Positions 10,681 through 62,548 of a stretch of 64,000 bases of DNA are shown here, one piece after another (within the stretch, counting starts at the first letter, position 1; each line of letters starts with the position of its first letter). This DNA comes from a bacterium (lineage in GTDB: Bacteria > Auribacterota > UBA3054): contig JAFZXZ010000022.1 in NCBI GenBank assembly GCA_017616555.1, positions 16 through 64,015 on the forward strand. Reading direction: 5' to 3'. Both the position numbers and the translations under genes were made by a program. The notes beneath the pieces were generated by a model. That model had not been told where the DNA came from. It made no database searches and saw only the letters and a program-made list of their open reading frames with translations.

Positions 10681-10700
10681 AATTTATCCTGTATTGTTAT

Positions 10701-16471: not shown

Positions 16472-16481
16472 AGGGTTTCCT

Positions 16482-22404: not shown

Positions 22405-22416
22405 GAGCGTTCCCCG

Positions 22417-22950: not shown

Positions 22951-22952
22951 TA

Positions 22953-24003: not shown

Positions 24004-24005
24004 TT

Positions 24006-24962: not shown

Positions 24963-24964
24963 AT

Positions 24965-26580: not shown

Positions 26581-26583
26581 CTT

Positions 26584-26814: not shown

Positions 26815-26868
26815 ATTTGTCTCCTTATTTTATTTTGTTTATTTTGTTTTGTTATTTGTTTTCAAATT

Positions 26869-30232: not shown

Positions 30233-30907
30233 TTATTTTTCGCTTTCAGCTTCAGAACCGGCTTCCTCGGCGGCTTCTTCGGGATAATTCCCGTTTTTGC
30301 GCCAGATGGAAGCGGTGACATCCTCAAGAAGCGGAGAATCCTTGAGATCCTCGAGTTCCTTGGCTACGGCAAGGGCTTCGTCGTCCTTACCCTGCAGGAC
30401 GTAGATCTTGAAGAGCAGATATTTGGCGTTCTGGGCGTGGGGACCCTTCATCAGTTTTTCATTGAGCACGTTCACAGCCTGGTCGTATTCGCCCTCGCCC
30501 ATGTAGCAGCGGGCCACGCAGAGCCAGGCGGCGTCAGCGTACTCGTCATTGGGATATTCTTTGGCGACTCTCGTGTAGTAATCCCTGGCGAGCGTGTAAT
30601 TCGTCGAGGAGGTCGCATCGGCAGCCAGCCTCAGAAGAGCGCTCTTGGCGCCATGGGTCCCGGGATATTTGCTGGGGATCTCAGCGAGAGCTATGGTATT
30701 TGTTCCGGCATTGGCCAAATTGTTCTCGGCGTTGGCCTTTTTCGTGTTCTTATTATTGATGATCTGATAGACTGCCACACAGACGACGAGCAGTATCAAA
30801 ATGCCTAAAAGAATGGAATTGCGTTTTTTGACCACAGTGACCGTGATCTTCTCGAGTTCTTCATGCACCGCGTCGTGACGCAGTTCCTTTTTTGTTAAAC
30901 CAGCCAT
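30233..30907 (-). CDS. membrane-anchored TPR protein (YfgM-like)
   Basis: Single N-terminal TM (ILLGILILLVVCVAVY), then TPRs (ARDYYTRVAKEYPNDEYADAAWLCVARCYMGEGEYDQA) and an acidic tail. Confidence 0.5.
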   Translation of the reverse strand: MAGLTKKELRHDAVHEELEKITVTVVKKRNSILLGILILLVVCVAVYQIINNKNTKKANAENNLANAGTNTIALAEIPSKYPGTHGAKSALLRLAADATSSTNYTLARDYYTRVAKEYPNDEYADAAWLCVARCYMGEGEYDQAVNVLNEKLMKGPHAQNAKYLLFKIYVLQGKDDEALAVAKELEDLKDSPLLEDVTASIWRKNGNYPEEAAEEAGSEAESEK

Positions 30908-35929: not shown

Positions 35930-37552
35930 ATGAAAAAAAATCTCCTTTATCTCTTTCTTGTATCCCTCGCCCTGACGACCGCCGTCGCTTTCGCCGACGA
36001 GGAATTTGACGACGAGGACGTCCAGTTTGACGAAGAAGGCAACGCTATTGAGGAAGTCGTGGAAGACGATTCCGAATCCGATGACGCCGCCCCGGCCGTC
36101 CAGTCCAAAGCCGCGGAAGCCGCTTCCGAAGCGCTTGACGAAGAAGCTAAGAAAGAACTGACCGAGAACGCCAAGGAAGGCGCCGGCGCCCTTTCCCAGG
36201 CCGACGCCGACAAAGCCACCGAAGGCCCCCAGTTCACCTGCCCGAAATGGAGCGACTACCTCAGCAGGCTGAACGCCAAGGCCGGCAGCGACCGCGGCGC
36301 CCGCTCTTACTGCAACAAGATCAGCATTACGGATGACAAAGGCATTCAGAGGACCTACACCGCTTTCCGTCAGAACGACGTCAAGATGCTGAAGCTCGGC
36401 GACAGCAACCATGCCTCCAGATTGAAAAGCGCCCTGAAGGGACAGAAACTGGCCGTGGCCGAAAGCACCCGTTTCGTGGCCGTCTATCCCAAGACTTGCA
36501 AAGCCCCCAAGGGCGGCAAAACGACTGAAATTGACACCGCGGAATTCTACGGCATTGACCAGATCCTCTCCGCCGGCGACGCCGCTTTCGACAAAGCGAC
36601 AGAGACGCTCGTCATGACCGATTTCATCAACTGGCTGAACAAACTGAGAGGCAAAGTTTACTTCGTCACGAGAAGCGAAGACTGGACCATGCTGAAAGGC
36701 ACAGGCCTCAGGAACTCCCCGGTTCAGACTGTTTACACCGCCAAGGGCTACAGGGAATTCTATGTTTACCTGACGCCTATCAACAAAGACTGGAACGCGG
36801 AAGCCTTCGCTTACGCCGTGGCTGCGGCCGTCCTCGACGAATTCCTCTCCATCACCAATTCGAAAGGCTCTGTCAACGAATTCCTGACCGTCGGTTTCGC
36901 CGCCTATTGCAGCGATCTTACTTCCGTTATCACGGAAGGCGGACCTGTCCAGCTCAAGACTTTCCAGAATAAGCCTGTCACTTTTGACATGCTCCAGAAG
37001 ATGAAGTCCGGCGCCCTGCCCTTCAAATCGCTGCCGCTCGACAAGACCGCCATCATAAACATCGACCAGTTCGTCAAAAACGGCGCCCCCACAGACAACT
37101 ACAAGCTTTACTACTTCCTGCGTCAGTCCGAGGCAATCTACGAATATCTCTCCATCAGGGACGCTCTGCCTTTGGTTTACCTTATGCGCAAAAGTAGAGA
37201 GCAGAACCGCAACTTTGACAAGGACTACGACAACTACTTCGCCAGTTTGCACCGCGACTCCTTCATGGGCAAGAAGACCGAACCTAAAAAGGATGACAAG
37301 AAAGACAAGAAGGACAAGGATAAAAAGGACAAGAAGGAAGGCGATACCGAGGAAGGCGGAGATGATGCCGAGGCCGAGGACATCGGCAGCAATTACAAAA
37401 CTTTCCGCAACCGCATCCCGTATCTTGTCTTCAACACTCTGACCGCCGACTCCGTCGCCAACGACATCGAGGAACAGAAGAAGGCCAAGGCTCAGAAAGG
37501 CAAAGAGCCCTCAAAAGATCAGAAGAACCAGAAAAAATCTAAAAAAGACTAA
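35930..37552 (+). CDS. secreted protein of unknown function with a D/K-rich tail (paralog b)
   Basis: Signal peptide MKKNLLYLFLVSLALTTAVAFA and an acidic N-terminal stretch. Shared blocks with paralog a (KVYFVTRSEDW vs ARIFVIPNQAMW; YYFLRQSEAIYEYL vs YYFLRESRGVVEKL). KKDDKKDKKDKDKKDKK tail. Confidence 0.7.
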   Translation: MKKNLLYLFLVSLALTTAVAFADEEFDDEDVQFDEEGNAIEEVVEDDSESDDAAPAVQSKAAEAASEALDEEAKKELTENAKEGAGALSQADADKATEGPQFTCPKWSDYLSRLNAKAGSDRGARSYCNKISITDDKGIQRTYTAFRQNDVKMLKLGDSNHASRLKSALKGQKLAVAESTRFVAVYPKTCKAPKGGKTTEIDTAEFYGIDQILSAGDAAFDKATETLVMTDFINWLNKLRGKVYFVTRSEDWTMLKGTGLRNSPVQTVYTAKGYREFYVYLTPINKDWNAEAFAYAVAAAVLDEFLSITNSKGSVNEFLTVGFAAYCSDLTSVITEGGPVQLKTFQNKPVTFDMLQKMKSGALPFKSLPLDKTAIINIDQFVKNGAPTDNYKLYYFLRQSEAIYEYLSIRDALPLVYLMRKSREQNRNFDKDYDNYFASLHRDSFMGKKTEPKKDDKKDKKDKDKKDKKEGDTEEGGDDAEAEDIGSNYKTFRNRIPYLVFNTLTADSVANDIEEQKKAKAQKGKEPSKDQKNQKKSKKD

Positions 37553-39634: not shown

Positions 39635-42115
39635 ATGATATCTGTGCGAGGGGCGCGCGAACATAACCTGAGGAATATCAGCGTCGATATACCGCACAAT
39701 TCCCTCACGGTGATCACAGGACTTTCCGGCTCAGGAAAGTCTTCTTTGGCTCTGGACACGCTTTTTGCTGAAGGACAACGGCGTTTCATGGAGAGCTTAT
39801 CCAGCTACGCCAGGCAGTTTCTCGGCATCCTGCAGAAGCCGAAAGTTGACCGCATCATAGGCCTCTCCCCAGCCATCGCCATCCAGCAGAGGATGGGCAA
39901 CACGAGCCTGCGCTCCACCGTCGGCACGGCCACAGAGATCCACGACTACTTAAGAGTGCTTTTTTCGCAGCTGGGCGTCCCCCACTGTCCGAAATGCGGC
40001 GCCGCCATCACTCCCCAGACTCCTGAGGAGATAATAGAGGCGATCCTTTCATTGCCACAGGGCGAGAAGATCGAGATCCTCTCCCCTCTCGTCAGGGGTA
40101 AGAAGGGCGAACACAAGGAACTCTTGGCCAAAGCCAGGAGAGAAGGTTTCCAGAGAGTCAGGATCGACGACGCGGAATATCTTTTGGACGAAGCGCCAGC
40201 TTTGGCGCGCTACAATCTTCACACTATCGAGGTCGTGGTTGACCGCCTGATCGTTCGGCCGGATATCCGGCGCCGCCTTGCGGACTCCGTTGAGACCGCC
40301 CTGAAGCTCGGCGAAAATTCCCTCGTCGTGCACAAACTGAATGGCGGCGACCTTTTCTTCTCAGGAAACTACGCCTGCCCCAATTGCCGCGACGGCGAAG
40401 AGCTTCCCAAAATGGAGCCGAGGCTCTTCTCTTTCAACAGCCCCTACGGCTTCTGTCCGACCTGCTTCGGGCTTGGCGTAATGTATTTCGACATGAACCA
40501 AACCTGCCCGGAATGTCACGGCGAAAGATTGAACGCCTACAGCCGCGCCGTCACTTTGAACGGCAAGACCATCGTTGACATAGGGAAGATGCCTTTGACC
40601 GAAGCCGCCGATTTTTTCAGCGATCTCACTAATTCTTTGAAGGGCGAAAAGAAAGAGATCTCCCGCGACATCCTGAGGGAAGTGAACAACCGCCTCGGTT
40701 TCCTGAAGACGGTGGGCTTAGGCTACCTCAATCTCTCCCGCAACTCCATTACTCTCTCGGGAGGCGAAGCGCAGAGAATAAGACTCTCCTCACAAATCGG
40801 CACGGGCCTTACCGGCGTGATGTACGTTCTGGACGAACCGACGATCGGACTTCACCCGAGGGACAATCAGAAACTCCTGGACGCCCTGAAGCAGCTTAGA
40901 GACCTCAACAATACGGTGGTGGTGGTCGAGCACGACGCGGAGGTCATAAGCAGCGCCGATTACGTTATAGATATGGGGCCCGGCGCCGGCAAATTAGGCG
41001 GCAACGTCATCTTCCAGGGACCTTACAAGAAGCTTCTGAAGTGCAAGGAATCCCTCACCGCCGATTATATGAGCGGAAAGCGGGCGATCGCGACCCCGCA
41101 TTACCGCCCGGTTGGCCCTAAAACGCCCTCTCTTACGCTAAAAGGGGCCTCTCACAACAATCTAAAGAACTTAACCGTGCGCTTCCCCTTAGGCCGCTTA
41201 ATTTGCGTCACAGGCGTTTCCGGCTCGGGCAAATCCTCCCTCATCACCGACACGCTGCTTCCGGCTCTTAGGAAGCACTATCACAAGGCCAACGTCACGC
41301 CCGGCGCCTTCAAGGAAATAGAAGGGCTTAAAAACCTCGACAAAGTCATCCTGGTGGACCAGTCCCCGCTCGGCCGCACGCCCCGCTCGAACCCCGCGAC
41401 CTATACGGAGGCCTTCACCCACATCAGGAATCTCTTCGCCCAGGTCCCGGAAGCTAAGCTCAGAGGCTACAAGCCCGGACGCTTCTCCTTCAACGTCAAA
41501 GGCGGCCGCTGCGAGGAGTGCGAAGGCTCGGGCGTAAAGCGAGTCGAGATGCATTTCCTGCCCGACGTCTTCGTCACGTGTGACAAATGCGAGGGGAAAC
41601 GCTATAATAAAGAAACGCTGGAAATTAAATATCGCGGGAAAAGCATTGCTGACGTACTTGACATGCCCCTTTCCGAAGCGAAGGAGTTCTTCAAGCATCA
41701 CAAGGTGCTCTACCGCATATTGGACACGATTTCCGAAGTAGGCTTGGACTACATCACTCTGGGCCAGCACGCCACCACTTTGTCAGGCGGCGAAGCCCAG
41801 AGGGTGAAGCTTTCCTACGAGCTCGCGAAGATGGACACCGGCAGGACGCTCTACGTCCTCGACGAACCGACGACCGGTCTCCATTTCGCGGACGTCGAGC
41901 GTCTTTTGCAAGTTTTGCAGAAACTTGTCGATGCCGGCAACACCGTCATCGTAATAGAACATAACCTTGATTTTATCAAGTGCGCCGATTACATCATCGA
42001 TCTCGGCCCCGACGGCGGAGCGGCGGGAGGGCAACTCCTCTCCTGCGGAACCCCAACGGAAGTGGCCAACGATCCTATGAGCGTGACCGGCCGCTTTTTG
42101 AGGAGTAAACTATGA
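39635..42115 (+). CDS. uvrA: excinuclease ABC subunit A homologue lacking the insertion domain (826 aa)
   Basis: Two ABC modules (GLSGSGKSSL, GVSGSGKSSL; LSGGEAQRIRL, LSGGEAQRVKL) and Zn modules. The UvrB-binding-region homologue is present (LPQGEKIEILSPLVRGKKGEH...HTIEVVVDRL). About 110 aa are missing between CPTCFGLGV and CPECHGERL. Confidence 0.85.
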   Translation: MISVRGAREHNLRNISVDIPHNSLTVITGLSGSGKSSLALDTLFAEGQRRFMESLSSYARQFLGILQKPKVDRIIGLSPAIAIQQRMGNTSLRSTVGTATEIHDYLRVLFSQLGVPHCPKCGAAITPQTPEEIIEAILSLPQGEKIEILSPLVRGKKGEHKELLAKARREGFQRVRIDDAEYLLDEAPALARYNLHTIEVVVDRLIVRPDIRRRLADSVETALKLGENSLVVHKLNGGDLFFSGNYACPNCRDGEELPKMEPRLFSFNSPYGFCPTCFGLGVMYFDMNQTCPECHGERLNAYSRAVTLNGKTIVDIGKMPLTEAADFFSDLTNSLKGEKKEISRDILREVNNRLGFLKTVGLGYLNLSRNSITLSGGEAQRIRLSSQIGTGLTGVMYVLDEPTIGLHPRDNQKLLDALKQLRDLNNTVVVVEHDAEVISSADYVIDMGPGAGKLGGNVIFQGPYKKLLKCKESLTADYMSGKRAIATPHYRPVGPKTPSLTLKGASHNNLKNLTVRFPLGRLICVTGVSGSGKSSLITDTLLPALRKHYHKANVTPGAFKEIEGLKNLDKVILVDQSPLGRTPRSNPATYTEAFTHIRNLFAQVPEAKLRGYKPGRFSFNVKGGRCEECEGSGVKRVEMHFLPDVFVTCDKCEGKRYNKETLEIKYRGKSIADVLDMPLSEAKEFFKHHKVLYRILDTISEVGLDYITLGQHATTLSGGEAQRVKLSYELAKMDTGRTLYVLDEPTTGLHFADVERLLQVLQKLVDAGNTVIVIEHNLDFIKCADYIIDLGPDGGAAGGQLLSCGTPTEVANDPMSVTGRFLRSKL

Positions 42116-43191
42116 AAAACAGATCCTTCGGTTCCGGAATGCGCGATTCCTTCCTGAACGTCTCTGGTAAATTCCTGGGCGCTCTCGCCTCCGACATCGG
42201 CGTTGACCTCGGCACCGCCAACACGATCGTCTATGTCTCCGGCATGGGCGTCGTGGTCAACGAGCCGACCATCGTGGCCATCAACAACAAGACGGGCGAA
42301 ATAATCGCCATCGGCAAGGAAGCGCAGTGCATGCTCGGCCGCACGCCCGGCATCATCGACACCCTGCGTCCGATGAAAGACGGCGCCGTCGCGAACCCCA
42401 ACGTTACGGAAGAGATGCTCCGCACCTTCATCCGCCGCGCCCACAGCCGCCACTCCGTCGTTCCCCCGAGGATCGTCATCGCAGTCCCCTCCTCCATCAC
42501 GGAGCTTGAACGCCAGGCTGTCAAATCCGCGGCCGAACGCGCCGGCGCCAGGAAAGTCTACTGCATCGAGCAGGCCATGGCGGCCGCCATCGGTTCAGGC
42601 CTTCCGGTGCACGATCCTTCCGGCAACATGATAATCGACATCGGCGGCGGCACGACGGAAGTCGCCATCACCTCTCTTTCCGGCACGGTCTATTCCAAAT
42701 CCCTGAGAGTCGCCGGCAACGAGATGAACGACGCCATCATCCAGTACATGAAGCGCGAATACAATCTATTGATCGGCGAACAGACCGCCGAGGAACTGAA
42801 GATCGCCATCGGCTCCGCCTATCCATTGGGTGAAAACGAAATGAAGAAGGAAGTCCGAGGCCGCGACCTCAACGTCGGCCTGCCGAAGACCATCACCATT
42901 TCAAGTACTGAGATCCGCCAGGCCCTGAAAGACCCCGTTGACGCCATCGTCAACTCCGTAAGGGACGCTCTGGAACAGTGCCCGCCGGAACTCTCCGCCG
43001 ACCTTCTCGACCACGGCCTTATGCTGGCGGGCGGCGGCGCGCTCCTAAGAGGCCTCTACAAACGCATCGAGAACGAGACCGGCCTTTCAGTTTCCATCGC
43101 AGACGAGCCGCTTCTGGCCGTCGCCAAAGGCACGGGCTTCATCGTCGAAAGAGAGGACGTGCTGGAGAAACTGGCTCTCGTCAATCTCTGA
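42112..43191 (+). CDS. mreB: rod shape-determining protein MreB
   Basis: IGVDLGTANTIVYV...DIGGGTTEVA...LAGGGALLRGL. ATGA overlap with the uvrA stop. Confidence 0.9.
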   Translation: MKNRSFGSGMRDSFLNVSGKFLGALASDIGVDLGTANTIVYVSGMGVVVNEPTIVAINNKTGEIIAIGKEAQCMLGRTPGIIDTLRPMKDGAVANPNVTEEMLRTFIRRAHSRHSVVPPRIVIAVPSSITELERQAVKSAAERAGARKVYCIEQAMAAAIGSGLPVHDPSGNMIIDIGGGTTEVAITSLSGTVYSKSLRVAGNEMNDAIIQYMKREYNLLIGEQTAEELKIAIGSAYPLGENEMKKEVRGRDLNVGLPKTITISSTEIRQALKDPVDAIVNSVRDALEQCPPELSADLLDHGLMLAGGGALLRGLYKRIENETGLSVSIADEPLLAVAKGTGFIVEREDVLEKLALVNL

Positions 43192-43202
43192 TAAGCGAAG
43201 CG

Positions 43203-43235
43203 AAAAAAGGCCTCCCAAACGGGAGGCCTTTTTTT
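43203..43235. terminator. bidirectional rho-independent terminator between the convergent mreB and the 960-aa gene
   Basis: A6, ggcctccc, aaac, gggaggcc, T7. Confidence 0.8.
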
Positions 43236-46116
43236 ATTCCTTCTCTTTTGGAAGGAATTGCTCGAGGCAGGAAAGGTCGACCTCCACGTTGATTGAATCA
43301 ACGAAACTCTCGACGCACTCGACATAAGCTTTGTCGTTCGCGGCGCAATACTTCCTAATAACATTGACGGCCTCCAAATATTTTTCCGGAGTGATGGCGT
43401 GCTTTTTACCGCCGTCGGCGACATCCTTCAGGAAAAGATCTATCTCCTCGTTTCGTTTGTTTCTGGCTTTTATGAATCCTCTCAGAAGCCCCGCGGATTT
43501 CTCAAGTTCCCGCACTTTTTCTGACACTTTCGCATATGCTTCCCTGAGCTCGGGTATGTTTCTTTCGCGCAGAACCGCTCTCAGATCCTCCAGCACAGTT
43601 TTGTGATTGGCAATATCCTGCTTGATCTGGCCCAGGATATTCCCATTCTCCAAACTCTCGCGATAATCGTAACTCGCAAGCTCCCTTATTCTCCGCTCGA
43701 ACGCTTCGTTCCTTTGATCGTATCTGTGCCACAGCACTTTCTTCCAATAAGTATTTGTATTTATTATGCAGTTGAGCAAATGTTCGAGCTCACGGATCCT
43801 GTCGTTCATCACCACAAGACAATCTTGATAACTCCTGTCGACGGCGTAAAGGGTGTTTGTGTCTCTGGTGCCGTAATGAAATCCCGGCATGGCGAAAGAC
43901 CCTCTTTCTGGCTTTTCCACCATGACGATGAGCTTGCCGGAGGTCCTCTCCCTTACGATCCTCATAGCAACGTTGCCGACCTTCTCAACGCCATTGCTTG
44001 GGGCAAGTTCAGCGTAAACGATCTTTAACCATCCGTAATCGCTTACCGTTTCATAAAAAAAGCGGTTGGCGACAAACATGGCGATCAAATTGTTCTCAAA
44101 GGGAACGCAGAGGTGCATGCGGGCATAAGCGCGCGCTGAAAAAAGCTCGAGCGCGTTGCGCCCGTCGAGGTCGCCGCAGGCTGTCAAGTGCCTGACGGAC
44201 GGTTCCCAGCGTCCGATAGCGGCGTTGGCGCGCCCCGCTATGAAGTTGTAGTGCGCGTCCCTGCGATAGGCCTGGTAGCATTTTTCCAACCTTTCCACGG
44301 CGAGTCTAATATCGCCCTCCTGGTAGAGACGCGTTCCGCTTTTATAATAGCACTCGTCGATCTGCCCTCTCTCAGCAATCGGCAAGGGCGCCTTAAGCCC
44401 GTCGTAGCGCTCGAAAGTTTCCAGTGCCTCCTCGTAGTCGCCATTGGCGTAATAGGCCTCGAAATTCTCGGTCAGGCAGCGTTCGAGTTTGCCCTTGACA
44501 ACTTCTAGAGCCTCCGGCTTTTCCTTTATGAGCTGCTCAAACTTATCCCTGGCGGACACAAAGTTCCCTTTTGCCATGAATTCGTCCGCTTCATTGCCAA
44601 GCACCCTGACGAGGCATTTCTTCCTGGCTCTTTCCAGGACATCCTCGGCCCTTTTGTAGGCCTTTGTCTCCCCGCAGGCGCTAACTAGCAGCGAGATCTT
44701 GTTGAGCACTTCGACATCGTTGGTCAGCGCCACGTTTTTCATGACGTCAAGTATATAGCGTTCCGCCGTCTTTTCGTCCATCTGATTTTTAAGGCGCTCA
44801 AGTCCGGCGTCGACGGAACCGGCGGCCGGTGTACCGCCGTAGTTTTCTTTTATTTGAAGATACGCGTTGTACGCCTTGACGGAATCGCCCGCGAATTCCA
44901 GTTTCTCAGCCTCGGCTAGAAGCTGAGCGGCGAAGCTGTCCCTTCTTTCGTTGCTGAGTCTGCGGCAGGAGGAGACCTGATCAAAGAAGTCCTCCCGCGC
45001 CATGGCCTCGGGATACTTCCGCACTATCTCTTCCAGCGACTCCTCCGCGGAAAACCAATAGTTTGACTCGACGAAAGCGTTCGCCAGTTTGAGTTCCGCT
45101 TTCGCCAGCTCCAGGGCCAGATCGCCGGCCTTCGCGGCGGCTTCCCGCGCCGCGAGAGTGCCGGGATAATCCGCCGCCACGGCCCTCAGCATCACGAGCG
45201 CCGGATCCTTCTTGCCGTTTTTTAAATAATTTTGGGCGTCGGCGCAAAGGTTGGCCGCGCTGATCTCCAAAAGAGCCTTGGCATTTTCCTTATCCAAAGC
45301 GTTCGCTCTTTCCGCCAGGGAGGAGTCGGGCAGATTGTTTTTCAGATTCTCCAGAATCTTCCGGCAGAGCTCGTGCTCGCCGGCCTTGAATCTTTTCTCC
45401 GCCGCGGAAAGAAGCTTTTCCGAAAGCTTCCTCTCATGGCGCCGGAAGATCGTGCTGCCGCTGCCGGGATCGTCGTTATCGGCGAGCGGATCGCCCTTGA
45501 AGCGCTCCCCTTTCAGATCCTCTGCGACGACAATTCCCTCTTCGCTCACGAAAAAAGTCTTTCTGCCGGTCACGTTGTAGATTTTGGGTACGGCGGTGAT
45601 GGAAAAAGTGTCGGCGCTGACGTTCTCGAAATAGTAGTTGTAGCCTTCCAGCGCGGGGCTGCCGCTCATCTCCCTAGCCTTGAGATCCAGCCCAGGTATC
45701 TCATCGAAACGGTCCGGAGCGACGTATTCGCCGTATCCGTCGCCGTCGGCGTCTTCCAGCAGGGCGTATTTAACGCAGAATTCCGCGCAGGCGGCCTTTT
45801 CCAATCTCACCATGACTCGCGATTCGTTGCGCGAGCACGCTTTGCCGGACAAAAAGTAAAAGGCGCCGAAGCCCAATAGCACGCACCATGCCAGAGAAAC
45901 GATTATGCCTACCCAGGCCATGATCGTTCCCCTAACGGTATTGCGGCGCCGGGAAACGGAAAGGACGCACAGAGCCAGGCCGATCAGTTCGCCTAGGCCC
46001 AGGAAGATCGGGCCCAGCAGCGCAAGGAGAAGCCCCAATACAGCCAGGGTATCAGAAGCGCGGGCCGTCGAGTCGCCGCGGGGGGGCAGCGTATTTGGCG
46101 GGCTTATCAGATCCAT
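43234..46116 (-). CDS. uncharacterised membrane protein, paralog C (960 aa): DUF4190-like TM block, pilin-like module, TPR-like repeats, coiled coil. No FHA-like module.
   Basis: Collinear with the two upstream genes from the TM block onward (SVSRRRNTVRGTIMAWVG; GYNYYFENVSADTFSITAVP; C-terminal LEQFLPKEKE). Confidence 0.8.
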   Translation of the reverse strand: MDLISPPNTLPPRGDSTARASDTLAVLGLLLALLGPIFLGLGELIGLALCVLSVSRRRNTVRGTIMAWVGIIVSLAWCVLLGFGAFYFLSGKACSRNESRVMVRLEKAACAEFCVKYALLEDADGDGYGEYVAPDRFDEIPGLDLKAREMSGSPALEGYNYYFENVSADTFSITAVPKIYNVTGRKTFFVSEEGIVVAEDLKGERFKGDPLADNDDPGSGSTIFRRHERKLSEKLLSAAEKRFKAGEHELCRKILENLKNNLPDSSLAERANALDKENAKALLEISAANLCADAQNYLKNGKKDPALVMLRAVAADYPGTLAAREAAAKAGDLALELAKAELKLANAFVESNYWFSAEESLEEIVRKYPEAMAREDFFDQVSSCRRLSNERRDSFAAQLLAEAEKLEFAGDSVKAYNAYLQIKENYGGTPAAGSVDAGLERLKNQMDEKTAERYILDVMKNVALTNDVEVLNKISLLVSACGETKAYKRAEDVLERARKKCLVRVLGNEADEFMAKGNFVSARDKFEQLIKEKPEALEVVKGKLERCLTENFEAYYANGDYEEALETFERYDGLKAPLPIAERGQIDECYYKSGTRLYQEGDIRLAVERLEKCYQAYRRDAHYNFIAGRANAAIGRWEPSVRHLTACGDLDGRNALELFSARAYARMHLCVPFENNLIAMFVANRFFYETVSDYGWLKIVYAELAPSNGVEKVGNVAMRIVRERTSGKLIVMVEKPERGSFAMPGFHYGTRDTNTLYAVDRSYQDCLVVMNDRIRELEHLLNCIINTNTYWKKVLWHRYDQRNEAFERRIRELASYDYRESLENGNILGQIKQDIANHKTVLEDLRAVLRERNIPELREAYAKVSEKVRELEKSAGLLRGFIKARNKRNEEIDLFLKDVADGGKKHAITPEKYLEAVNVIRKYCAANDKAYVECVESFVDSINVEVDLSCLEQFLPKEKE

Positions 46117-46120
46117 GCGT

Positions 46121-49100
46121 TCACTTTACGTTTTCCGTATTTTCTTTCGGAAGGAATTGTTCGAGGAAGGAAAGGTCGATGTCGATGTTGACGGTCTCCG
46201 CGAATTTCTCGACGCAGTCAGTATAGGTCTTGTCCTCGGTCGTGTAGTAGCTCCTGATCTTCCTCGCCAGATCCCCTACCTGCTCCACGGTCAGCCGCTC
46301 CTTTAGGATCGGTTCCACGTTGTCCCTCAGCATGGTGTGGATCTTTTTATTGCGCGTATCCCTCACGTTGACAAAAGTTCTCAGAAGGGTCCTCACCTTT
46401 CTTAACTTTGCGATCTTCTTCATGGTGTTTACCATCCTTTCGCGCAGTTCGGGATATTCTCTAACGGAAAGAATGTATTTGAGATCCGTAAGGACGGCGT
46501 TGTGATGGATAATGTCACGGTCCAACTGCTTTATGATGTCCTCATTTGCGTCCTTCTCGCGCTTGTCGATGACCTCGAGCTCCCTGATCTTCACGACAAA
46601 AAGATCCATCCTTGTTTCAAGTTGCTGCCTGAATATGAGCTTGCGTCTGCCGTTGGTGTGGACGATCTTGTCCAGAAGATTTTCCATCTCGCGGATCCTA
46701 TCGTTCATGACTTCCAGGGCGCTTTGGTAACTCATGTCTTTGGCGAGCAGAGATTCCTTTGCCCTTTGATAATCGTTGGAATAGAGGAGATCCTTGGAAG
46801 CTTTGACAGAGGAGGCGGGATCCGGCCTGTCCATGGTGACGACGATCTCGCCGGAAGTCTTCTCGCGGTCGATCTTCATGTGAACGTTGCTGACGTTCTC
46901 TATGTCGTTTGTCACGGAAAGGGTGGCGTAATTGATCTTGATCCAGCGGTAATCCTTGGCCGTTTTCTGGAAATCAAGGTTGGCGACGAACATGGCGATC
47001 AGCCTGTTTTCCACCCTGTAGCTGAGATTGACGATGGAATAAGACCTCGCCGCGCTAAGGTCGAACTTGTTGCGCTCGGGAAGATCCCTGCAGGCGATAA
47101 GGTGTCTGGCCGCCGGCTCCCAGTGTTTGATGACAGTGTTGGCCCGTCCGGCGGCAAAGTTGAACTGCTGATCGTTCAGATAAGCGGGATAGCATTTCTC
47201 AAACCTTTCGGCGGCTTTCCGCATTTCGCCCTCTTGATAAAAACGCATGCCGCTCTTGCAGAGGCTCTCGTCAACTTTCGCGGTCTCTATGGCCGGGAAG
47301 GGCGGATTCAATTCCATGTAGCGGTCGTAGGCCTCCAGAGCCTCGTCGAATTCCTCCTTGGAATAATGGTACTCGAAAATTTCGACCAGGCAAAGCTCGT
47401 ATTTTTCCCTGACCTTCGTGAACATTTCCGGCTTTTCCCTCAAGATCTGGTCTATGCGATCCTTGGCCGCCTGGTAATTTTTATCCCGCAGGAACTGGTC
47501 AACTTCCTTTCCGAGAATGCTGACCGTGCAGTCTCTTCTAGCCCTTTCCAGAACGTCCAACGACCGCTCGTAAGCCTTGGTCCCGCCACAGCTGTTCTTT
47601 AGGAGCGAGACCATGTTGACGACCTCGACTTCGTTGCTCATGGCCACGTTTCTCATGATCTCCGCTATGTACTTCTCGGCCGTTTTCTCATCCATCTGAT
47701 TCTTCAGGCGCTCCAGAGCGGAATCTATGTCCTTGGCGGCAGGAGTGTCGCCGTAACTTTCCCTGATCATAAGATAGGTGTTGTAAGAGAGGACGGTGTT
47801 TTCCTCAAACTCGAGTTTCTCCGCCTCGGCAAGCAGCTCCAGCGCGTATTTGTCCCTTCTGTCGTGGCTCTCTTTGCGACAAAGCGAGACCTGATCCTTG
47901 AAGTCGGCCTGAAAGAGCGCCTCGGGATACAGGCGTTCGATCTTCGATAGCGACTCTTCCACGGCGTTCCAATGGTTCGACTCAATATGGGAATTAGCCA
48001 GCTTAAGCTCCGCCGACGCCAATTCCAGGGCCAGTTCGTTCACCCGGGCTTTCACTTCCTGCGCGGTTCTGGTATTGGGATAATCCGCCGCGATAGCTCT
48101 CAGCATCACGAGCGCCGGATCCTTTTTCCCGCTTTTTATGAAATTTTCAGCGTCGGCATACAGTCTTTCAGCCTCGGCCTCGAGGAGGAACGGCGCGTTC
48201 TCCTTTTCCATGGCCGAAAGCCTCGCCAGATAGGAGGAATTCGGGAGCATGTTCCTGAGATTTTCCAGGACCTTCTGGCAGAGGAAGTAATTGCCCGCTT
48301 TAAAGTTTTTTTCCGCCGCGGAAAGCAGCTTTTTGGACAGCGTTTTTTCGTTGCGTTGGAAGATCGTCTGGATCTTTTCGGGGTTCTCCAACTTTGCGAT
48401 GGGATCTTCCTCGAAACGCCCGCCCGCGAGGTCTTCCGAAACGACAATGCCCGCTTCGCTCACCCAGTGGGTCTTTTTGCCTGTCACGCCGTAAACTTGC
48501 GGAACCGCCGTGACGGAAAAAGTGTCGGCGCTCACGTTGTCAAAGTAGTAATTGTAGCCGTCGCGAATAGGGTTTTCAGCAAGCTCTTTGACTTTCGCGT
48601 CCAGTCCCGGAATGGCGGCGAAACGGTCCGGACCGACGAACTCGCCGAAGAGGTCGCCGTCGTCGTCTACGAGGACCGCGTATTTGATATGGAATTCCGC
48701 TAATGCGGTCTTTTCCAGCCTGGCCAAGACTTTTCTCTCGTTGCGGACCTGGACGTCCAGCGTCGTCAGATAGAAGATCCCCGAACCTATGGCGGCGAGC
48801 CACACGAGCGAGATGACGATGCCGAGCCAAGCCATGATCGTTCCCCTAACGGTGTTGCGGCCGCGGGAAATGGAAAGCACGCAAAGGACGAGGCCGATTA
48901 TTTCGCCGATGCCTATGACGATGGGGCCCAGGGCGGCGAATATGAGGCCCAATTTCGCGAGCGTGTCGGAGGTGTGGATGACGAAACTGGTATAGGGATC
49001 GTAAAAAGTCCCGGGAGCGGCGACGCCCCACTGGGTCCCGCCGACGGCGACCTGATTGGCGTTGGCAGACGCCATCGGCGCTCCGGATTGGGCCGCGACG

Positions 49101-49408
49101 GGCGCCGGCGCTCCGGATTGCGTCACCGCAACATCCAGTACGAGAAAGTCTATCCCGGCCAGGGAGAACCTCAGACCGGTCTTCAGTTTCAGGCTGCTTG
49201 CGCTTTCTTCCCCAAACAATATCGGCTTGTCGTCCAGGCTCTCAAAGAGCCAGACGCCGTCAGAATATGTGAGCGAGGCCTGGTAATCGCCGACGCCTTC
49301 GCGCTCGACGATTATCTGGTTGTCCTTGGCGCGGCCTATGGTGGCGCTGACGCCGGTCACCGTAAAGGCCTGCTTCTGGGGCGTGTTTGGGAATATGACT
49401 AATTTCAC
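46121..49408 (-). CDS. uncharacterised membrane protein, paralog B (1095 aa): FHA-like N-terminus, TM block, pilin-like module, TPR-like repeats, coiled coil
   Basis: N-terminus TIGRAKDNQIIVEREGVGDYQASLTYSDGVWLFESL. TM block with SISRGRNTVRGTIMAWLG. Stop lies 4 nt before the start of paralog C. Confidence 0.8.
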   Translation of the reverse strand: MKLVIFPNTPQKQAFTVTGVSATIGRAKDNQIIVEREGVGDYQASLTYSDGVWLFESLDDKPILFGEESASSLKLKTGLRFSLAGIDFLVLDVAVTQSGAPAPVAAQSGAPMASANANQVAVGGTQWGVAAPGTFYDPYTSFVIHTSDTLAKLGLIFAALGPIVIGIGEIIGLVLCVLSISRGRNTVRGTIMAWLGIVISLVWLAAIGSGIFYLTTLDVQVRNERKVLARLEKTALAEFHIKYAVLVDDDGDLFGEFVGPDRFAAIPGLDAKVKELAENPIRDGYNYYFDNVSADTFSVTAVPQVYGVTGKKTHWVSEAGIVVSEDLAGGRFEEDPIAKLENPEKIQTIFQRNEKTLSKKLLSAAEKNFKAGNYFLCQKVLENLRNMLPNSSYLARLSAMEKENAPFLLEAEAERLYADAENFIKSGKKDPALVMLRAIAADYPNTRTAQEVKARVNELALELASAELKLANSHIESNHWNAVEESLSKIERLYPEALFQADFKDQVSLCRKESHDRRDKYALELLAEAEKLEFEENTVLSYNTYLMIRESYGDTPAAKDIDSALERLKNQMDEKTAEKYIAEIMRNVAMSNEVEVVNMVSLLKNSCGGTKAYERSLDVLERARRDCTVSILGKEVDQFLRDKNYQAAKDRIDQILREKPEMFTKVREKYELCLVEIFEYHYSKEEFDEALEAYDRYMELNPPFPAIETAKVDESLCKSGMRFYQEGEMRKAAERFEKCYPAYLNDQQFNFAAGRANTVIKHWEPAARHLIACRDLPERNKFDLSAARSYSIVNLSYRVENRLIAMFVANLDFQKTAKDYRWIKINYATLSVTNDIENVSNVHMKIDREKTSGEIVVTMDRPDPASSVKASKDLLYSNDYQRAKESLLAKDMSYQSALEVMNDRIREMENLLDKIVHTNGRRKLIFRQQLETRMDLFVVKIRELEVIDKREKDANEDIIKQLDRDIIHHNAVLTDLKYILSVREYPELRERMVNTMKKIAKLRKVRTLLRTFVNVRDTRNKKIHTMLRDNVEPILKERLTVEQVGDLARKIRSYYTTEDKTYTDCVEKFAETVNIDIDLSFLEQFLPKENTENVK

Positions 49409-49414
49409 GGCTTA

Positions 49415-52400
49415 TTACTTGGCCGGAGCGGGCGCGGCCGCCTCAGGCTGAGTCTGCGCCTTAGCGGCTTCGGCTTCAGCTTTGGCTTTGTTCGCGTCCG
49501 ATTTATCTTTCGGCAGATATTCCTCTAGGGAGGAAAGGTCGAGATCGATATTGAGGGACTCCGTGAATTTTTGGACGCACTCTATGTAGGTCTTGTCCTC
49601 AGCAGTATAGTAGCCCCTTATCTTGACGGCCGCTTCCGAAAGCTGTTCCGGAGTCAGCGTCTCCTTCTCGGCGGATTCCACGATAGATTTCAAAAAGAGG
49701 TCGATCTTGGCGTTGCGAAGAGTCCTGTCTGAGATGAATTTCTTGAACATCCGGTTGACCTTTTTTAGCTCATCGATCTTTTTCGCGACGCTCATGGCTC
49801 TGTCTTTCAGTTCCGGAATATTGCGCTTTTCAAGGATAGACTTGAGGTCGGCTCTCACGGCGTTGTGGTGGATGATATCGCGCTCAAGCTGCTTGAGGAT
49901 GTCCTCGTTGGCTTTCATCTCGCGCTTGTCTATGATCTCAAGCTCCTTGATCCTCATGTTGAAGCGGTCGATCTTCTTCTTGAAGGATTCCCTGACGATA
50001 TGCTTGCTTCCGCCGTTCGTCCGTATGATGTTGTTTAGGATCGATTCCAGTTCGCGTATCCTGTTGTTGATGACCTCCAGAGAGTTCTGATAGCTTCTCT
50101 CGATGGTGAGAAGGGATTCCTTCGCGTCTTCCTTGTCCCTGTCGTTGAGCGTGTCGGTCTGGTTGGACTTTTGGTCGGCGGGATCGGGACGCTGCAGCGT
50201 GACCACGACCTCGCCGGAAGTTTTCTCGCGGTCGATCTTCATGAGAACGTTGCTGACATTCTCAATGTCGTTCGTGACGGACAGCTTGGCGTAGTTGATC
50301 TTGATCCACTTGTAGTCTTTTATGGTCTGCTGGAAATCGAGATTGGCCACGAACATGGCTATGAGCCTGTTCTCCTGGCGCGTGCAGAGATTGACGATGG
50401 AGTAAGCCCTGGCCGTGCAGAGGTCGAATCTGTAGCGCTCCTCGATGTCTTTGCAAGCGATCAGGTGCCTGGCCGCCGGTTCCCAGTGTTTGATGACGGC
50501 GTTGGCGCGGCCGGCGATGAAATTGTACTGCGTGTCTTTCAGATAAGCGGGGTAGCACTTCTCGAACCTGTCAGCGGCGTCCCGCATGTCGCCCTGCTGG
50601 TAGAGGCGCATGCCGCTCTTGTAGTAGCATTCGTCGACTTTCGCCCTGTCTATGGCCGGCAGGATAGGGTTCATGTCCATGTAGCGGTCGTAGGATTCAA
50701 GAGCCTCGTCGTAGTCCCCTTTCGCGTAATAATTGTCGAAGTTCTTGACCAGGCAAAGCTCAAGCTTGTCCTTGATCTTCATGAAGGATTCGGGCTTCTC
50801 CTTTATGATGTGCTCGAGCCTGTCCTTGGCGGACTGGAAATTTCCCTCCTCCATGAACTTGTCCACTTCCTTGTTGAGGACGCTGACAGTGCAGTTCTTC
50901 CTGATCCTCTCGAGGATCTCCTCGGCCCGCTTGTAGGCCTTGGTCTCGGCGCAGCTGTTCTTTAGAAGCGTGATCATGTTCACGACGACGACCTCGTTGC
51001 TCAAAGCCACATTCTTCATGATGTCGGAGATGTATTTCTCGGCCGTCTTCTCGTTCATCTGCGTGTTGAGGCGCGCCAAGGCCGCGTCGATGTCCTTGGC
51101 GGCCGGCGTATTGCCGTAGCTTTCCCTGATCTGCAAATAGGCGTTGTAGGCCTGGACGTTGTCGCCCGCCAGCTCCAATTTCTCCGCGTTCTTGAGAAGG
51201 TTCATGGCGTACTGGTCCCTCAGATCGTGCGCAAGTTTGCGGCAGGCCGAGACCTGATCCTTGAAATCGCCTTGCACGAAGGCTTCGGGATATTTCTGCT
51301 CGATCTTGCCAAGCGATTCGTCCACTGAGTTCCAGAAGTTCGATTCGATATAAGAATTCGCGAGTTTAAGTTCGGCCGTGGCCAATTCCAACGCCAGGGA
51401 GTTCACCTGCTTTTTGGCTTCCTGCGCTGTACTGGTATTGGGAAAATCCGCCGCGATGTTCCTCAGCGTCTCAAGCGCGGGGTCTTTCCTCCCGCTCTTG
51501 ACGTAATTCATGGCGTCGGAATAGAGCCTGTGCGCCTTGGCTTCCATCAGGAAGGGCGCGTTCTCCTTTTCCACCGCGTTCAGCTTCGCCATAGCGGAAG
51601 AATACGGGAACTTATTCTTCAAATTCTCGATGATCTGCTGGCAGAGGTCGTATTTTTCGTTCTTGAAGTTCTGCTCAGCCGCGAAGAGGATCTTTTCGGA
51701 GAGTTCCTTCTCATAGCGCTGCGGGATGGTCTGGACGTTCTCGACGTCCTCCACCCTGGCCAGGGGATCGTCCTCGAAGCGAGAGCCCTTCAGATCATCC
51801 GAGACGATGATGCCAGATTCGTTCACCCAGTAGGTCTTCCTGCCCGTCACGTTGTAGACCTGTGGCGTGGCGGTGATGGTGAAAGTGTCGGCGGAAACGT
51901 TTTCGAAGTAGTAATTGTAGCCTTCCCTCAGCGGGCTCTCGGCCAATTCCTTGGCCTTGACGTCTATCCCGGCGAGGCCGGCGAAGCGGTCGGGTTCCAC
52001 AAATTCGCCGATCAGATTGCCATCGTCGTCGACTAGCACGGCGTACTTGACGTAATATTCCGCCATGACCGTCTTTTCAAGCCTGGCCACCACTTTCGTC
52101 TCATTGTGTATCTTGGTGTCCTTCGTCATGAAGTAGAAGAGCCCCAGACCAATGATGATAAGCCAGACCAAAGAGAGCACCACGCCGATCCAAGCCATGA
52201 TCGTGCCCCTCACGGTGTTGCGTCGGCGGGAAATGGAGATGACGCAGAGCACAAGGCCTATCAATTCGCCGACACCCAGGACCAGTGGGCCAAGGATGGA
52301 GAAGATCAAGCCCAGTTTGGCTAGCGTGTCGGAGGCCTGAACAACGAAGCCGGCGTAAGGATCTACGAAAGTTCCGGGCGCTGCCATCCCCCACTGTTGG

Positions 52401-52807
52401 CCGCCGACAGCGACCTGATATCCTTGCTGCTGCATGCCGTTCGGCATGACCTGCAGGGCTCCCCCGGGAGGAGGCTGCATCTGCTGGGGCTGTTCCGGTT
52501 CGCTCGGCGCCTTCGCCTCGGTCATGATGACATCGAGGACAAGGAAATCAACGTCGGCAAGAGAGAACTTCAGACCGACTTTCAGTTTCAGGCTGGAAGA
52601 AGCTTCGCTTCCGCACTGTATCTTCTTCTCATCCAGGCTCTCAATCAGCCAGACGCCGTCGGCATAAGTGAGCGACGCCTGATAATCGCTGACATTGGGT
52701 CCTTCCAAATAGATCGGGTTGTCAGGTGAGGAACCGAAAGTGGCGCTGGGGCCGGTCACCGCGAAGACCTGCTTCTGCGGCGTATTGGGGAAAGCAACTA
52801 GTTTCAT
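49415..52807 (-). CDS. uncharacterised membrane protein, paralog A (1130 aa): FHA-like N-terminus, Q/P-rich linker, TM block, pilin-like module, TPR-like repeats, coiled coil, A/E/K tail
   Basis: Same architecture as paralog B. Stop lies 6 nt before the start of paralog B. First gene of the array. Confidence 0.8.
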   Translation of the reverse strand: MKLVAFPNTPQKQVFAVTGPSATFGSSPDNPIYLEGPNVSDYQASLTYADGVWLIESLDEKKIQCGSEASSSLKLKVGLKFSLADVDFLVLDVIMTEAKAPSEPEQPQQMQPPPGGALQVMPNGMQQQGYQVAVGGQQWGMAAPGTFVDPYAGFVVQASDTLAKLGLIFSILGPLVLGVGELIGLVLCVISISRRRNTVRGTIMAWIGVVLSLVWLIIIGLGLFYFMTKDTKIHNETKVVARLEKTVMAEYYVKYAVLVDDDGNLIGEFVEPDRFAGLAGIDVKAKELAESPLREGYNYYFENVSADTFTITATPQVYNVTGRKTYWVNESGIIVSDDLKGSRFEDDPLARVEDVENVQTIPQRYEKELSEKILFAAEQNFKNEKYDLCQQIIENLKNKFPYSSAMAKLNAVEKENAPFLMEAKAHRLYSDAMNYVKSGRKDPALETLRNIAADFPNTSTAQEAKKQVNSLALELATAELKLANSYIESNFWNSVDESLGKIEQKYPEAFVQGDFKDQVSACRKLAHDLRDQYAMNLLKNAEKLELAGDNVQAYNAYLQIRESYGNTPAAKDIDAALARLNTQMNEKTAEKYISDIMKNVALSNEVVVVNMITLLKNSCAETKAYKRAEEILERIRKNCTVSVLNKEVDKFMEEGNFQSAKDRLEHIIKEKPESFMKIKDKLELCLVKNFDNYYAKGDYDEALESYDRYMDMNPILPAIDRAKVDECYYKSGMRLYQQGDMRDAADRFEKCYPAYLKDTQYNFIAGRANAVIKHWEPAARHLIACKDIEERYRFDLCTARAYSIVNLCTRQENRLIAMFVANLDFQQTIKDYKWIKINYAKLSVTNDIENVSNVLMKIDREKTSGEVVVTLQRPDPADQKSNQTDTLNDRDKEDAKESLLTIERSYQNSLEVINNRIRELESILNNIIRTNGGSKHIVRESFKKKIDRFNMRIKELEIIDKREMKANEDILKQLERDIIHHNAVRADLKSILEKRNIPELKDRAMSVAKKIDELKKVNRMFKKFISDRTLRNAKIDLFLKSIVESAEKETLTPEQLSEAAVKIRGYYTAEDKTYIECVQKFTESLNIDLDLSSLEEYLPKDKSDANKAKAEAEAAKAQTQPEAAAPAPAK

Positions 52808-52924
52808 ATAGATTATTCTACCATTTTTAGAAAAATGTTGAAACGGTTTTCACCCTCTGATGTTGAACGCTATCCGTCATTTTGGTAGAATTACCGAAAT
52901 CAAAGCTAAATAAGAAAGAACACT

Positions 52925-54475
52925 ATGGCAGAACAAATTAAAACTCCCAGCGCCCATTGGGGCGACAAAGCCGTCGACCTTCTGCTCCAGCAGAGAGGCA
53001 ACGGACCCTTCCTCATCGCCAGCGGCATCTCTCCCTCCGGACGCATCCACGTCGGCAACTTAAGGGAAGTTTTGACCGCCGACATCATGTACCGCATCCT
53101 AAAGGAGCGCGGACACGAGGCGAAGCTTATCTTCGTGGCGGACGACTACGACGCCTTAAGGAAAGTCTATCCTTTCCTGGACCCCGCGGTCTATGAGAAA
53201 TACGTGGGCTGTCCCCTCTCCGAGATCCCGGCGCCAGACGGCAGCGACATGACTTACGCGGAATACTTCCTGCAGCCGTTCGTCAAATCGCTTAAGAAGC
53301 TGAAAATCGACGCGCACGTCGTCAGGGCCAGCGAGCTCTACCGCGACGGCGTCTTGAAGAAACAGATAATCCAGGCCCTGAACGCCAGGGACGAGATCGC
53401 CGAGATCCTAACGAGAGTAACCGGCAAAGAGATCGGCGAGGACTGGAGCCCCTTCAATCCTCACTGCCGCCTCTGCGGCAACATGAAGACCACGAAACTT
53501 GTGGCGTGGCATCCCGAGACCGAGGAGATCACCTACTACTGCTCACACTGCGACAAGGAACGCACCGTTCCCGTCGTCGGCAACGGCAAGCTGACCTGGC
53601 GCGCCGACTGGCCGGCCCGATGGGCGGCCCTGGGCGTCGACGTCGAGCCGTTCGGCAAAGACCACGGCGGCAAGGGCGGCAGCTACGATACCGGCAAAGA
53701 GATCGTGAGAAAGATCTACGGCGGCACGGAACCCTTCCCCATCATCTACGAATGGATTAGACTGAAAGGTCTGGGAGACATGAGTTCCTCTAAGGGCAAC
53801 GTCGTTTCCGTTGACGAAGTGCTGGAAGTGGTGCCCCCCGACGTCCTGCGTTACTTTATAACGCGCCCCGCTCCCAAAGCGAGTTTGGCGCTCGACCTCG
53901 TCACGCAGCTCCTTAACCTCGTCGACGAAGTGGACGACGAAAGCAAGAAGCAGCGTGACGCCAGAAGCGTCGAGCTTTCCCAGGCCGGCGGCTTCGTTCC
54001 TTTGCACATCCCCTTCAACCACCTTGTCAACGTCTGGCAGGTGGCCGGCGGCGACTTCGAGAAGGTCAAGAAGATCCTGACAAGGACCGGCTTCAAGTAC
54101 AGCGACGAGGCGGCGCTCCTGGAACGCTGCCATTACGCCGACGAATGGCTGAAGCGCTATGCCACGCCGGAATTCATCTTCCAGCTTCTCGACGAAACGC
54201 CCGCCGAGATCGTTCCTCTCATCTCTGACGAAGAGAAGAAGGCCCTCTCCCTTATCGCGGACGAACTGGAGAAGAACCCTGAAGCGGACGGCAACGCCAT
54301 CCACCAGATCATCTACAATATCGCAAACTCTACCGGCGTCTCGATGGGCAACCTCTGCAAGGCCCTCTACCGCGTGACGCTGGGCAGAGACCGCGGCCCC
54401 AGGGCCGGCTGGTTCGTGGCCATGGCCGGAAACGATCAGATCGCTTCCCGCATCAGGAAATTCCTCGCGAGGTAA
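52925..54475 (+). CDS. lysS: lysine--tRNA ligase, class I type
   Basis: Class I layout: HIGH-like PSGRIHVGNLREV, KMSKS-like LGDMSSSKGN, a Cys cluster (CRLCGN...CSHCDK), 516 aa. Confidence 0.8.
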   Translation: MAEQIKTPSAHWGDKAVDLLLQQRGNGPFLIASGISPSGRIHVGNLREVLTADIMYRILKERGHEAKLIFVADDYDALRKVYPFLDPAVYEKYVGCPLSEIPAPDGSDMTYAEYFLQPFVKSLKKLKIDAHVVRASELYRDGVLKKQIIQALNARDEIAEILTRVTGKEIGEDWSPFNPHCRLCGNMKTTKLVAWHPETEEITYYCSHCDKERTVPVVGNGKLTWRADWPARWAALGVDVEPFGKDHGGKGGSYDTGKEIVRKIYGGTEPFPIIYEWIRLKGLGDMSSSKGNVVSVDEVLEVVPPDVLRYFITRPAPKASLALDLVTQLLNLVDEVDDESKKQRDARSVELSQAGGFVPLHIPFNHLVNVWQVAGGDFEKVKKILTRTGFKYSDEAALLERCHYADEWLKRYATPEFIFQLLDETPAEIVPLISDEEKKALSLIADELEKNPEADGNAIHQIIYNIANSTGVSMGNLCKALYRVTLGRDRGPRAGWFVAMAGNDQIASRIRKFLAR

Positions 54476-62513: not shown

Positions 62514-62548
62514 ATTAATCGTTAAAAACATAAAGAACCGGAGAAAAC

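Follow-up and report, generated by a model that had tools for sequence, protein, structure and literature searches.

Cytoplasmic FHA domains that are joined through a membrane anchor to a periplasmic scaffold are known from SctD (YscD/PrgH/EscD) of the type III secretion system (T3SS) and from other membrane-linked FHA proteins. SctD has an N-terminal cytoplasmic FHA fold without phosphothreonine-binding residues, a single membrane span and a large periplasmic body directed toward the outer membrane. In mycobacterial FhaA and FipA/FhaB, in Fha/TagH of the type VI secretion system and in cyanobacterial FraH, the FHA domain couples Ser/Thr-kinase signalling to envelope processes. Here we describe three tandem genes, A, B and C, which combine such an FHA-like head with an uncleaved pilin-like head and a long TPR arm. 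They lie in a 64,000-nt stretch of bacterial DNA (the window; positions 16 to 64,015 of contig JAFZXZ010000022.1, assembly GCA_017616555.1). Each module comes from a known superfamily, and the combination is rare and uncharacterised. We establish the architecture, homologies, copy-number history and selection of these genes and from them infer a function. With moderate confidence, we favour the explanation that A, B and C are a lineage-specific tandem amplification of one standalone gene, whose product would be an envelope-spanning scaffold or tether.

Comparison with the closest described systems

The family shares with SctD the degenerate cytoplasmic FHA fold, the membrane anchor and the large periplasmic body. 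Distant family members match PF16697; in A and B the match is below the cut-off (12.6 bits in B versus 33.2). In contrast to SctD, the periplasmic part consists of a pilin-like head, TPRs and a helical bundle without ring-building motifs, the anchor is DUF4190-like rather than a single span, and the window showed no T3SS genes. The best structural matches of the FHA head are mycobacterial FHA domains, but no sequence relation to FhaA, FipA/FhaB, TagH or FraH extends beyond the FHA fold, the binding residues are degenerate here, and no kinase or phosphatase gene was found close by.

Type IV pilins and the pseudopilins of the type II secretion system (T2SS) share with the family a prepilin-type globular head and a long helix running from the membrane into it. 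The family differs in lacking Gly-1, Phe+1 and Glu+5, in having its membrane helix within the DUF4190-like block, and in the ~760 residues that follow the head, which make incorporation into a pilus very unlikely. BamD and YbgF (CpoB) have the same TPR subtype, with PF13525 above the cut-off and TIGR03302 and TIGR02795 matched in part. The family nevertheless matches these proteins only in part and under the NCBIfam cut-offs, it has no lipoprotein signal, and the TPR region is one module of a polytopic inner-membrane protein of ~1100 aa, compared with ~240 aa for the lipoprotein BamD. The same transmembrane block and head cassette, with the motifs NE...GY.F...P..YG.TG.RTF.VDE.G, occurs in L019/P0101 (Acidobacteriota) and in DUF2950 proteins. 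These lack the FHA head, TPR array and bundle and are themselves uncharacterised.

Three collinear paralogs under purifying selection

An earlier note on this DNA, made from its letters, had picked out three head-to-tail minus-strand open reading frames (ORFs) of 1130, 1095 and 960 aa with gaps of 6 nt (A-B) and 4 nt (B-C), encoding collinear paralogs. This layout was borne out (Table 1), and the motifs that the note quoted are present and conserved in the translations. Over their full length, A and B are 64% identical, A and C 53%, and B and C 52% (overall range 52-64%). All ORFs are intact, and the ratio of nonsynonymous to synonymous substitution rates (dN/dS) is 0.09-0.26 for all copies in comparisons with orthologs and between paralogs. 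A, B and C are thus under purifying selection, and none of them is decaying.

The promoter-like site of A sits in a 117-nt divergent intergenic region shared with the gene for class I lysyl-tRNA synthetase (LysRS). No strong terminator was found inside the A-B-C array, which fits a single transcript of all three genes.

A degenerate FHA head on a DUF4190-like membrane block

Residues 1-95 were modelled by AlphaFold2 (AF2) as a beta sandwich with a pLDDT of 72-86. Foldseek matched this model to the FHA domains of GarA, FhaA, Rv1747 and Ki67 with probability 1.0, E-values down to 6e-5 and target TM-scores of 0.6-0.76. The PF00498 scores of A (18.2 bits) and B (14.4 bits) are below the gathering cut-off of 20.7, while the short relative P0055 scores 44.2 bits and several distant family members also have precomputed PF00498 matches. 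Positions ~10-115 of the family profile in turn match dozens of unrelated FHA proteins. Distant members, for example P0038-P0051, carry the canonical phosphothreonine-binding residues GR / SxxH / (S/T)NGT. At these sites A has GS / SDYQ and B has GR / GDYQ, and both lack the NG. These replacements indicate that, in this clade, the FHA fold has been kept and phosphothreonine reading has probably been lost. The FHA-like head proposed earlier therefore stands as a fold, without its canonical phosphothreonine-binding residues.

The Q/P/A-rich linker that follows was predicted to be disordered (pLDDT ~30). A CxxC...CxxC zinc ribbon, absent from this clade, sits in the linker of 16 of the 31 aligned members. 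The hydrophobic block was modelled as a helical hairpin (residues 138-160 and 167-182), a basic loop and one long helix (187-238), in keeping with the DUF4190-like block that had been noted. DUF4190 (PF13828; cut-off 35) is sub-threshold in A (15.8 bits) and C (12.7 bits); relatives with the same cassette score 33.9 (P0035), 45.5 (L019) and 47.2 bits (P0101).

The most coherent topology would have a cytoplasmic FHA head, a membrane-embedded hairpin and a periplasmic body of ~880 residues, as had been suggested. Pilin heads are extracytoplasmic, and FHA domains and zinc ribbons are cytoplasmic modules; in addition, a strongly basic loop (3-6 K/R and zero acidic residues in this clade) leads into the last helix. 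An inverted arrangement, in which the first hydrophobic stretch crosses the membrane only once, the basic loop lies outside and the TPR body is a cytoplasmic scaffold, is very unlikely. By hydropathy the first stretch is indeed one segment of ~32 residues, and the stretch behind the last helix is also rather basic, with 4 K/R among 15 residues. Inversion would, however, conflict with the homology of the head to extracytoplasmic pilin heads, with the modelled hairpin, with the charge of the loop and with TPRs of the periplasmic BamD/YbgF type. The cysteines C377, C510, C627 and C739 were considered as evidence for periplasmic disulfides and dropped, three of the four being conserved only in the nearer subclade.

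A post-membrane module related to prepilin heads

The module after the last membrane helix had been described as pilin-like but without a prepilin cleavage motif, and both parts of this description hold. In a profile comparison with a 162-aa Hydrogenedentales prepilin (L018 9890-10378), which begins MRTRAG|FTLVELMIV and matches PF07963 (E 7e-9), the family module was aligned over the whole head (hhalign probability 99.2%, E 1.5e-19, 111 columns). AF2 secondary structure, a long helix followed by five strands at low pLDDT, is in the right order for a pilin head. Judged from the profiles, the module is a true homologue of prepilin heads. In A, B and C we found no class III signal peptide, no prepilin peptidase site, no Glu5 and no PF07963 match; the membrane helix reads RGTIMAWLGIV, without the G|F/M...E motif.

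The C-terminal ~45 positions of DUF2950 (PF11453) were matched in 18 of 21 heads. The match is limited to model positions ~207-252 of 274, and no full-length match occurred. At the pilin-like head, C scores 28.5 bits against a cut-off of 20.2, B scores 14.7 and A has no match. PDB sequence searches with the full-length profile and with the head profile returned only generic TPR/BamD matches and noise, and by sequence this head subtype has no solved relative. A word-based homology search with a 196-aa fragment spanning the transmembrane block and the head recovered nothing, the family itself included, which looks like a limit of word-based candidate collection.

The head module was also seen in other architectures: the plain prepilin of L018, a 286-aa Pyrinomonadaceae protein with a zinc ribbon, DUF4190 and the head (L019 9758-10618), and an 803-aa DUF3352 protein with the head at its C-terminus (L022 7766-10177). 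This recurrence suggests a pilin-head subtype that is mobile and uncharacterised and shares ground with DUF2950.

A TPR array, a beta insert and a helical C-terminus

The helical repeats after the head are TPRs of the BamD/YbgF type, as PF13525 (YfiO) is matched above its cut-off. The BamD models TIGR03302 (41-50 bits versus a cut-off of 81.4) and NF008119 (9-20 versus 363) and the TIGR02795 model were matched below their cut-offs, TIGR03302 and TIGR02795 in part only. The C-terminal 326 residues were modelled confidently (pLDDT 81, pTM 0.77) as helices, a four-strand beta insert, a three-helix bundle (24, 62 and 44 residues) and short terminal helices. The model agrees with the conserved insert and helical C-terminus reported earlier, but what had been read as a coiled coil comes out in it as a three-helix bundle within one chain.

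No significant structural match to the C-terminal model was found in the PDB (Foldseek, best E 0.13, TM-score ~0.2). A helical toxin identity of the ClyA/Hbl/MakE type was rejected: E-values were at least 0.13 at a TM-score of ~0.2, the likeness was that of generic long helices, and the beta insert is not hydrophobic. The C-terminal third is the least conserved region across the family.

A rare family that varies in copy number at one site

A word-indexed search found 19 relatives. An exhaustive profile search among 1.84 billion representatives found 41 clusters at E<1e-30, about 30 of them full-length (1000-1190 aa). The family is rare, with about 40 clusters at 50% identity, from Kiritimatiellae, UBP3, and lake and digester metagenome-assembled genomes (MAGs). 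Close relatives over the full length are confined to ruminant-gut MAGs ('Bacterium isolate RGIG...') and 'bacterium UBP3_UBA3054', which identifies the source as a member of candidate phylum UBP3. The family is not wholly unlabelled: the few relatives with names are automatically called 'FHA domain-containing protein' [Kiritimatiellae bacterium] or [bacterium], 'DUF2950 family protein [bacterium]' or 'TPR repeat protein'. The view that it belongs to no characterised family held up, as Pfam, NCBIfam, PDB and Foldseek searches and PADLOC gave none that covers the whole protein. PADLOC anti-phage defence models did not match A, B or C. Literature searches on DUF2950, on DUF4190 with FHA and on FHA with pilin-like and TPR modules gave nothing relevant, and full-text searches found no description of the combination.

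Identity between A and its orthologs in L007-L010 is 91-98%; with the single-copy genes of L011-L014 it is 64-71%. B has orthologs in L007-L010, starting with GTG in L007 and L008, as here, and with ATG in L009. At the syntenic LysRS site, one A-type copy is present in L001/L011, L012-L014 and L036/L037, two copies (A-B) in L007 and L009, and three (A-B-C) in the window and L008; L010 ends at a contig end. No second copy was found in the flanking DNA examined around distant homologues, which appear to be standalone single genes in each of these contexts. The tandem trio is therefore a local amplification rather than a feature of the family, and it cannot be taken as the defining system that the earlier note had proposed. 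In a neighbour-joining tree, B and C fall outside the clade formed by A and the single-copy genes, a placement that does not separate ancient duplication and loss from accelerated evolution.

Shorter architectures occur as well. P0055 has the FHA domain, transmembrane block and head without TPRs, and P0101 and L019 consist of the DUF4190 block and head only. Headless forms recur in P0035 (910 aa, scanned) and in P0037 and P0052, which match the profile only from about position 140. This recurrence bears on the reading of B and C as redundant by-products of duplication that have no role of their own and are heading for loss, which would agree with the variable copy number among close relatives and with the missing FHA head of C. 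Set against the intact ORFs and low dN/dS of all copies, and the persistence of C orthologs in P0015, P0016 and L008, such a fate is most improbable.

Paralog C lacks the FHA head and has a recombinant 3' end

C lacks the first ~140 residues of A and B. Its first nine codons, MDLISPPNT, are kept and still match MKLVAFPNT of A and B, after which the sequence jumps to the pre-membrane segment. The FHA domain and linker were thus lost by in-frame deletion. Orthologs of C are P0015, P0016 and the L008 gene at 13293-16157. Compared with L008, residues 1-632 are ~98% identical with a dS of 0.019, whereas residues 633-960 are 43-63% identical with a dS of 1.47, and the blastn alignment ends within the 3' third. 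Because identity and dS switch so sharply at residue ~633, the 3' third of C is a recombinant divergent allele, derived from neither A nor B.

A fourth paralog and the gene neighbourhoods

A fourth paralog, X0 (P0023/P0173/P0182; 1062 aa), is ~27% identical to A and has the same architecture. X0 (P0182) and an A-type gene (P0010) occur together on a contig of 54,845 nt. In related genomes, X0 lies about 20 kb from the A locus, right after ROK-maf. The inferred gene order is ValRS, ROK, maf, X0, (SuhB), PFK, gspF, gspK, two pseudopilins, thioredoxin/TPR, ..., SDH, PpiD-like, aconitase, APH, HGD, GalK, BacA, LysRS, with A(-B-C) divergent and mreB convergent. From this synteny, with the PpiD/SurA_N-like gene at the window end as the bridge, the present genome is predicted to carry X0 about 10 kb past position 64000.

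In L031, L034 and L035, gspF, gspK and two genes for N_methyl pseudopilins follow downstream of X0 at a distance of under 2 kb. Together with the homology of the head to prepilin heads, this proximity raises the possibility that the protein is an accessory of a T2SS or type IV pilus (T4P)-like machine. The uncleaved head would dock on the pseudopilus platform as an anchor, cap or decoy, the TPRs would contact the secretin or pilotin, and the FHA domain would take cytoplasmic regulatory input; TPR pilotins for secretins are established. We consider this unlikely. The window holds no secretion or pilus genes, including machinery genes for T2SS/T4P filament assembly, and no T2SS/T4P genes lie beside the A-B-C array or the homologues in L004, L025, L027, L029 and L030. 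A PFK gene separates X0 from gspF, T2SS genes near X0 were seen in a single lineage, and the protein lacks the class III signal and the Glu5 that incorporation into a pilus requires. The adjacent pseudopilins were also rejected as relatives of the head (hhalign probability 0.3%).

The neighbourhoods also bear on a link to cell shape or division. ROK, maf and the family gene are arranged with overlapping or near-abutting stop and start codons in three deep subclades (L004; L029; L031/34/35), and mreB occupies the array-convergent site in every examined two- or three-copy genome and in some single-copy genomes, so that the array adjoins mreB in most UBP3 genomes. With the matches of the TPR region to YbgF/CpoB and BamD models, the protein could be an envelope tether, like a fused TolA/CpoB, that joins peptidoglycan or outer-membrane processes to the cytoskeleton. 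This is quite unlikely, however, as mreB is convergent with a terminator between it and the array and is not at this site in L001/L011, the division role of Maf is itself indirect, and the TPR matches are below the NCBIfam cut-offs. Other distant contexts (L025, L027, L030) are unrelated. A co-occurrence with Hanks kinases or PP2C phosphatases had been raised, but neither gene was found in the window or in any examined context. Taken together, the context clues point weakly towards the envelope (division/shape or T2SS) rather than to phospho-signalling cascades.

Proposed function

As an envelope-spanning scaffold or tether, the protein would bind a cytoplasmic partner through its FHA head and engage periplasmic or outer-membrane partners through the pilin head, TPR array and bundle. 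The ancestral FHA head probably bound its partner via phosphothreonine; since the phosphothreonine-binding residues have been lost, binding here would probably be phospho-independent. The last helix of the DUF4190-like anchor doubles as the pilin stalk, and the arm formed by TPRs and helical bundle would reach the periplasmic or outer-membrane partners. A, B, headless C and X0, all maintained by purifying selection, probably act as variants that have diversified or form hetero-oligomers, and C would receive no cytoplasmic input. Hetero-oligomerisation of the paralogs is purely conjectural.

Several points weigh against this reading. The gene neighbourhoods of distant homologues, mostly unrelated housekeeping genes, suggest no partner, and the TPR array and the bundle, being generic interaction modules, point to none in particular. 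The pilin-like head was modelled with a pLDDT of 30-45, leaving its assignment to the sequence profiles. The topology is derived only from the pilin homology, the basic loop and the DUF4190 organisation.

A bolder version would have A, B, C and the maf-linked X0 co-assemble as a new trans-envelope structure of UBP3/PVC-like bacteria. A ring or stub close to the membrane would be built from the uncleaved pilin heads, the TPR and bundle arms would reach the outer membrane, and an interface that is exposed and under selection would be marked by the recombining C-terminus of C. We regard this as a long shot.

Setting of the array in the window

The window is chromosomal housekeeping DNA, with genes for class I LysRS, BacA, galactokinase, MreB, a UvrA-like protein, AccA, a YkuD L,D-transpeptidase and PNPase and a Lpt/Kdo cluster. 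The Lpt and Kdo genes show that the organism is diderm and bears lipopolysaccharide (LPS). Class I LysRS is the less common form in bacteria.

Among the other genes in the window are three large paralogs, the first two with an alpha/beta-hydrolase gene between them. The 1551- and 1514-aa paralogs match reprolysin-like M12 metalloprotease models, and PKD and CarboxypepD_reg-like domains occur in each of the three; a role as secreted or surface proteases is probable. By the Lpt cluster lie genes for two TPR proteins, related to A, B and C only by their TPR repeats. Two adjacent, uncharacterised ORFs have no Pfam match; L007, L009 and L036 conserve both, with apparent signal peptides.

Table 1. 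Positions of the array, its modules and other features, numbered from the first letter of the window.
Feature	Position	Strand	Remarks
Paralog A	49415-52807	minus	1130 aa, ATG start; conserved ortholog of the single-copy gene in related genomes
A, FHA-like head	52523-52807	minus	
A, disordered linker	52337-52522	minus	
A, DUF4190-like transmembrane block	52124-52336	minus	
A, pilin-like head	51767-52123	minus	
A, TPR array	50372-51766	minus	
A, beta insert	50186-50371	minus	
A, helical bundle and tail	49418-50185	minus	
Paralog B	46121-49408	minus	1095 aa, GTG start
B, FHA-like head	49124-49408	minus	
B, linker	48974-49123	minus	
B, transmembrane block	48761-48973	minus	
B, pilin-like head	48404-48760	minus	
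B, TPR array	47009-48403	minus	
B, beta insert	46823-47008	minus	
B, helical bundle and tail	46124-46822	minus	
Paralog C	43234-46116	minus	960 aa, ATG start; headless copy
C, vestigial start MDLISPPNT		minus	directly before the transmembrane block
C, transmembrane block	45847-46059	minus	
C, pilin-like head	45490-45846	minus	
C, TPR array	44095-45489	minus	
C, beta insert	43909-44094	minus	
C, helical bundle	43237-43908	minus	
C, recombinant 3' third	43237-44220	minus	residues ~633-960; divergent allele relative to the L008 gene
Promoter-like site TCAACA-18-AATAAT	52812-52841	minus	upstream of A; consensus match only
Bidirectional intrinsic-terminator-like hairpin	43202-43235		strong; 15-bp stem between an A run and a T run; between convergent mreB and paralog C
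mreB	42112-43191	plus	convergent neighbour of the array
PpiD/SurA_N-like gene	62546-64000	plus	truncated at window end; 99% identical to L036, 79% to L034/L035
Class I lysyl-tRNA synthetase	52925-54475		PF01921, E 6.5e-115
LPS transport and Kdo cluster	21143-27456		LptB, two LptA-like, LptC-like, KdsC, KdsD, KdsA, KdsB, weak LptE-like match
BamD/YfiO-like TPR protein	27460-30192		910 aa
TPR protein	30233-30907		224 aa
Three large paralogs	6025-21026	minus	1551, 1539 and 1514 aa
Alpha/beta-hydrolase gene	10701-11864		between the first two large paralogs
ORF	34407-35915		502 aa
ORF	35930-37552		540 aa

Significance

This locus belongs to a rare, coherent family of uncultured lineages, in which a putative cytoplasmic FHA reader is fused to an uncleaved pilin head and a long, presumably periplasmic TPR/helical arm. 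It shows that pilin heads have been reused as fixed membrane-proximal domains. The family also offers a natural series for studying how a scaffold diversifies, from canonical to degenerate FHA to headless forms and from one to two to three tandem copies, together with a recombining C-terminus. If the link to the T2SS or to maf/mreB is true, the protein would be a new envelope component in a phylum without cultured members; if the paralogs co-assemble, they would form a new kind of envelope machine that borrows the pilin head without a pilus.

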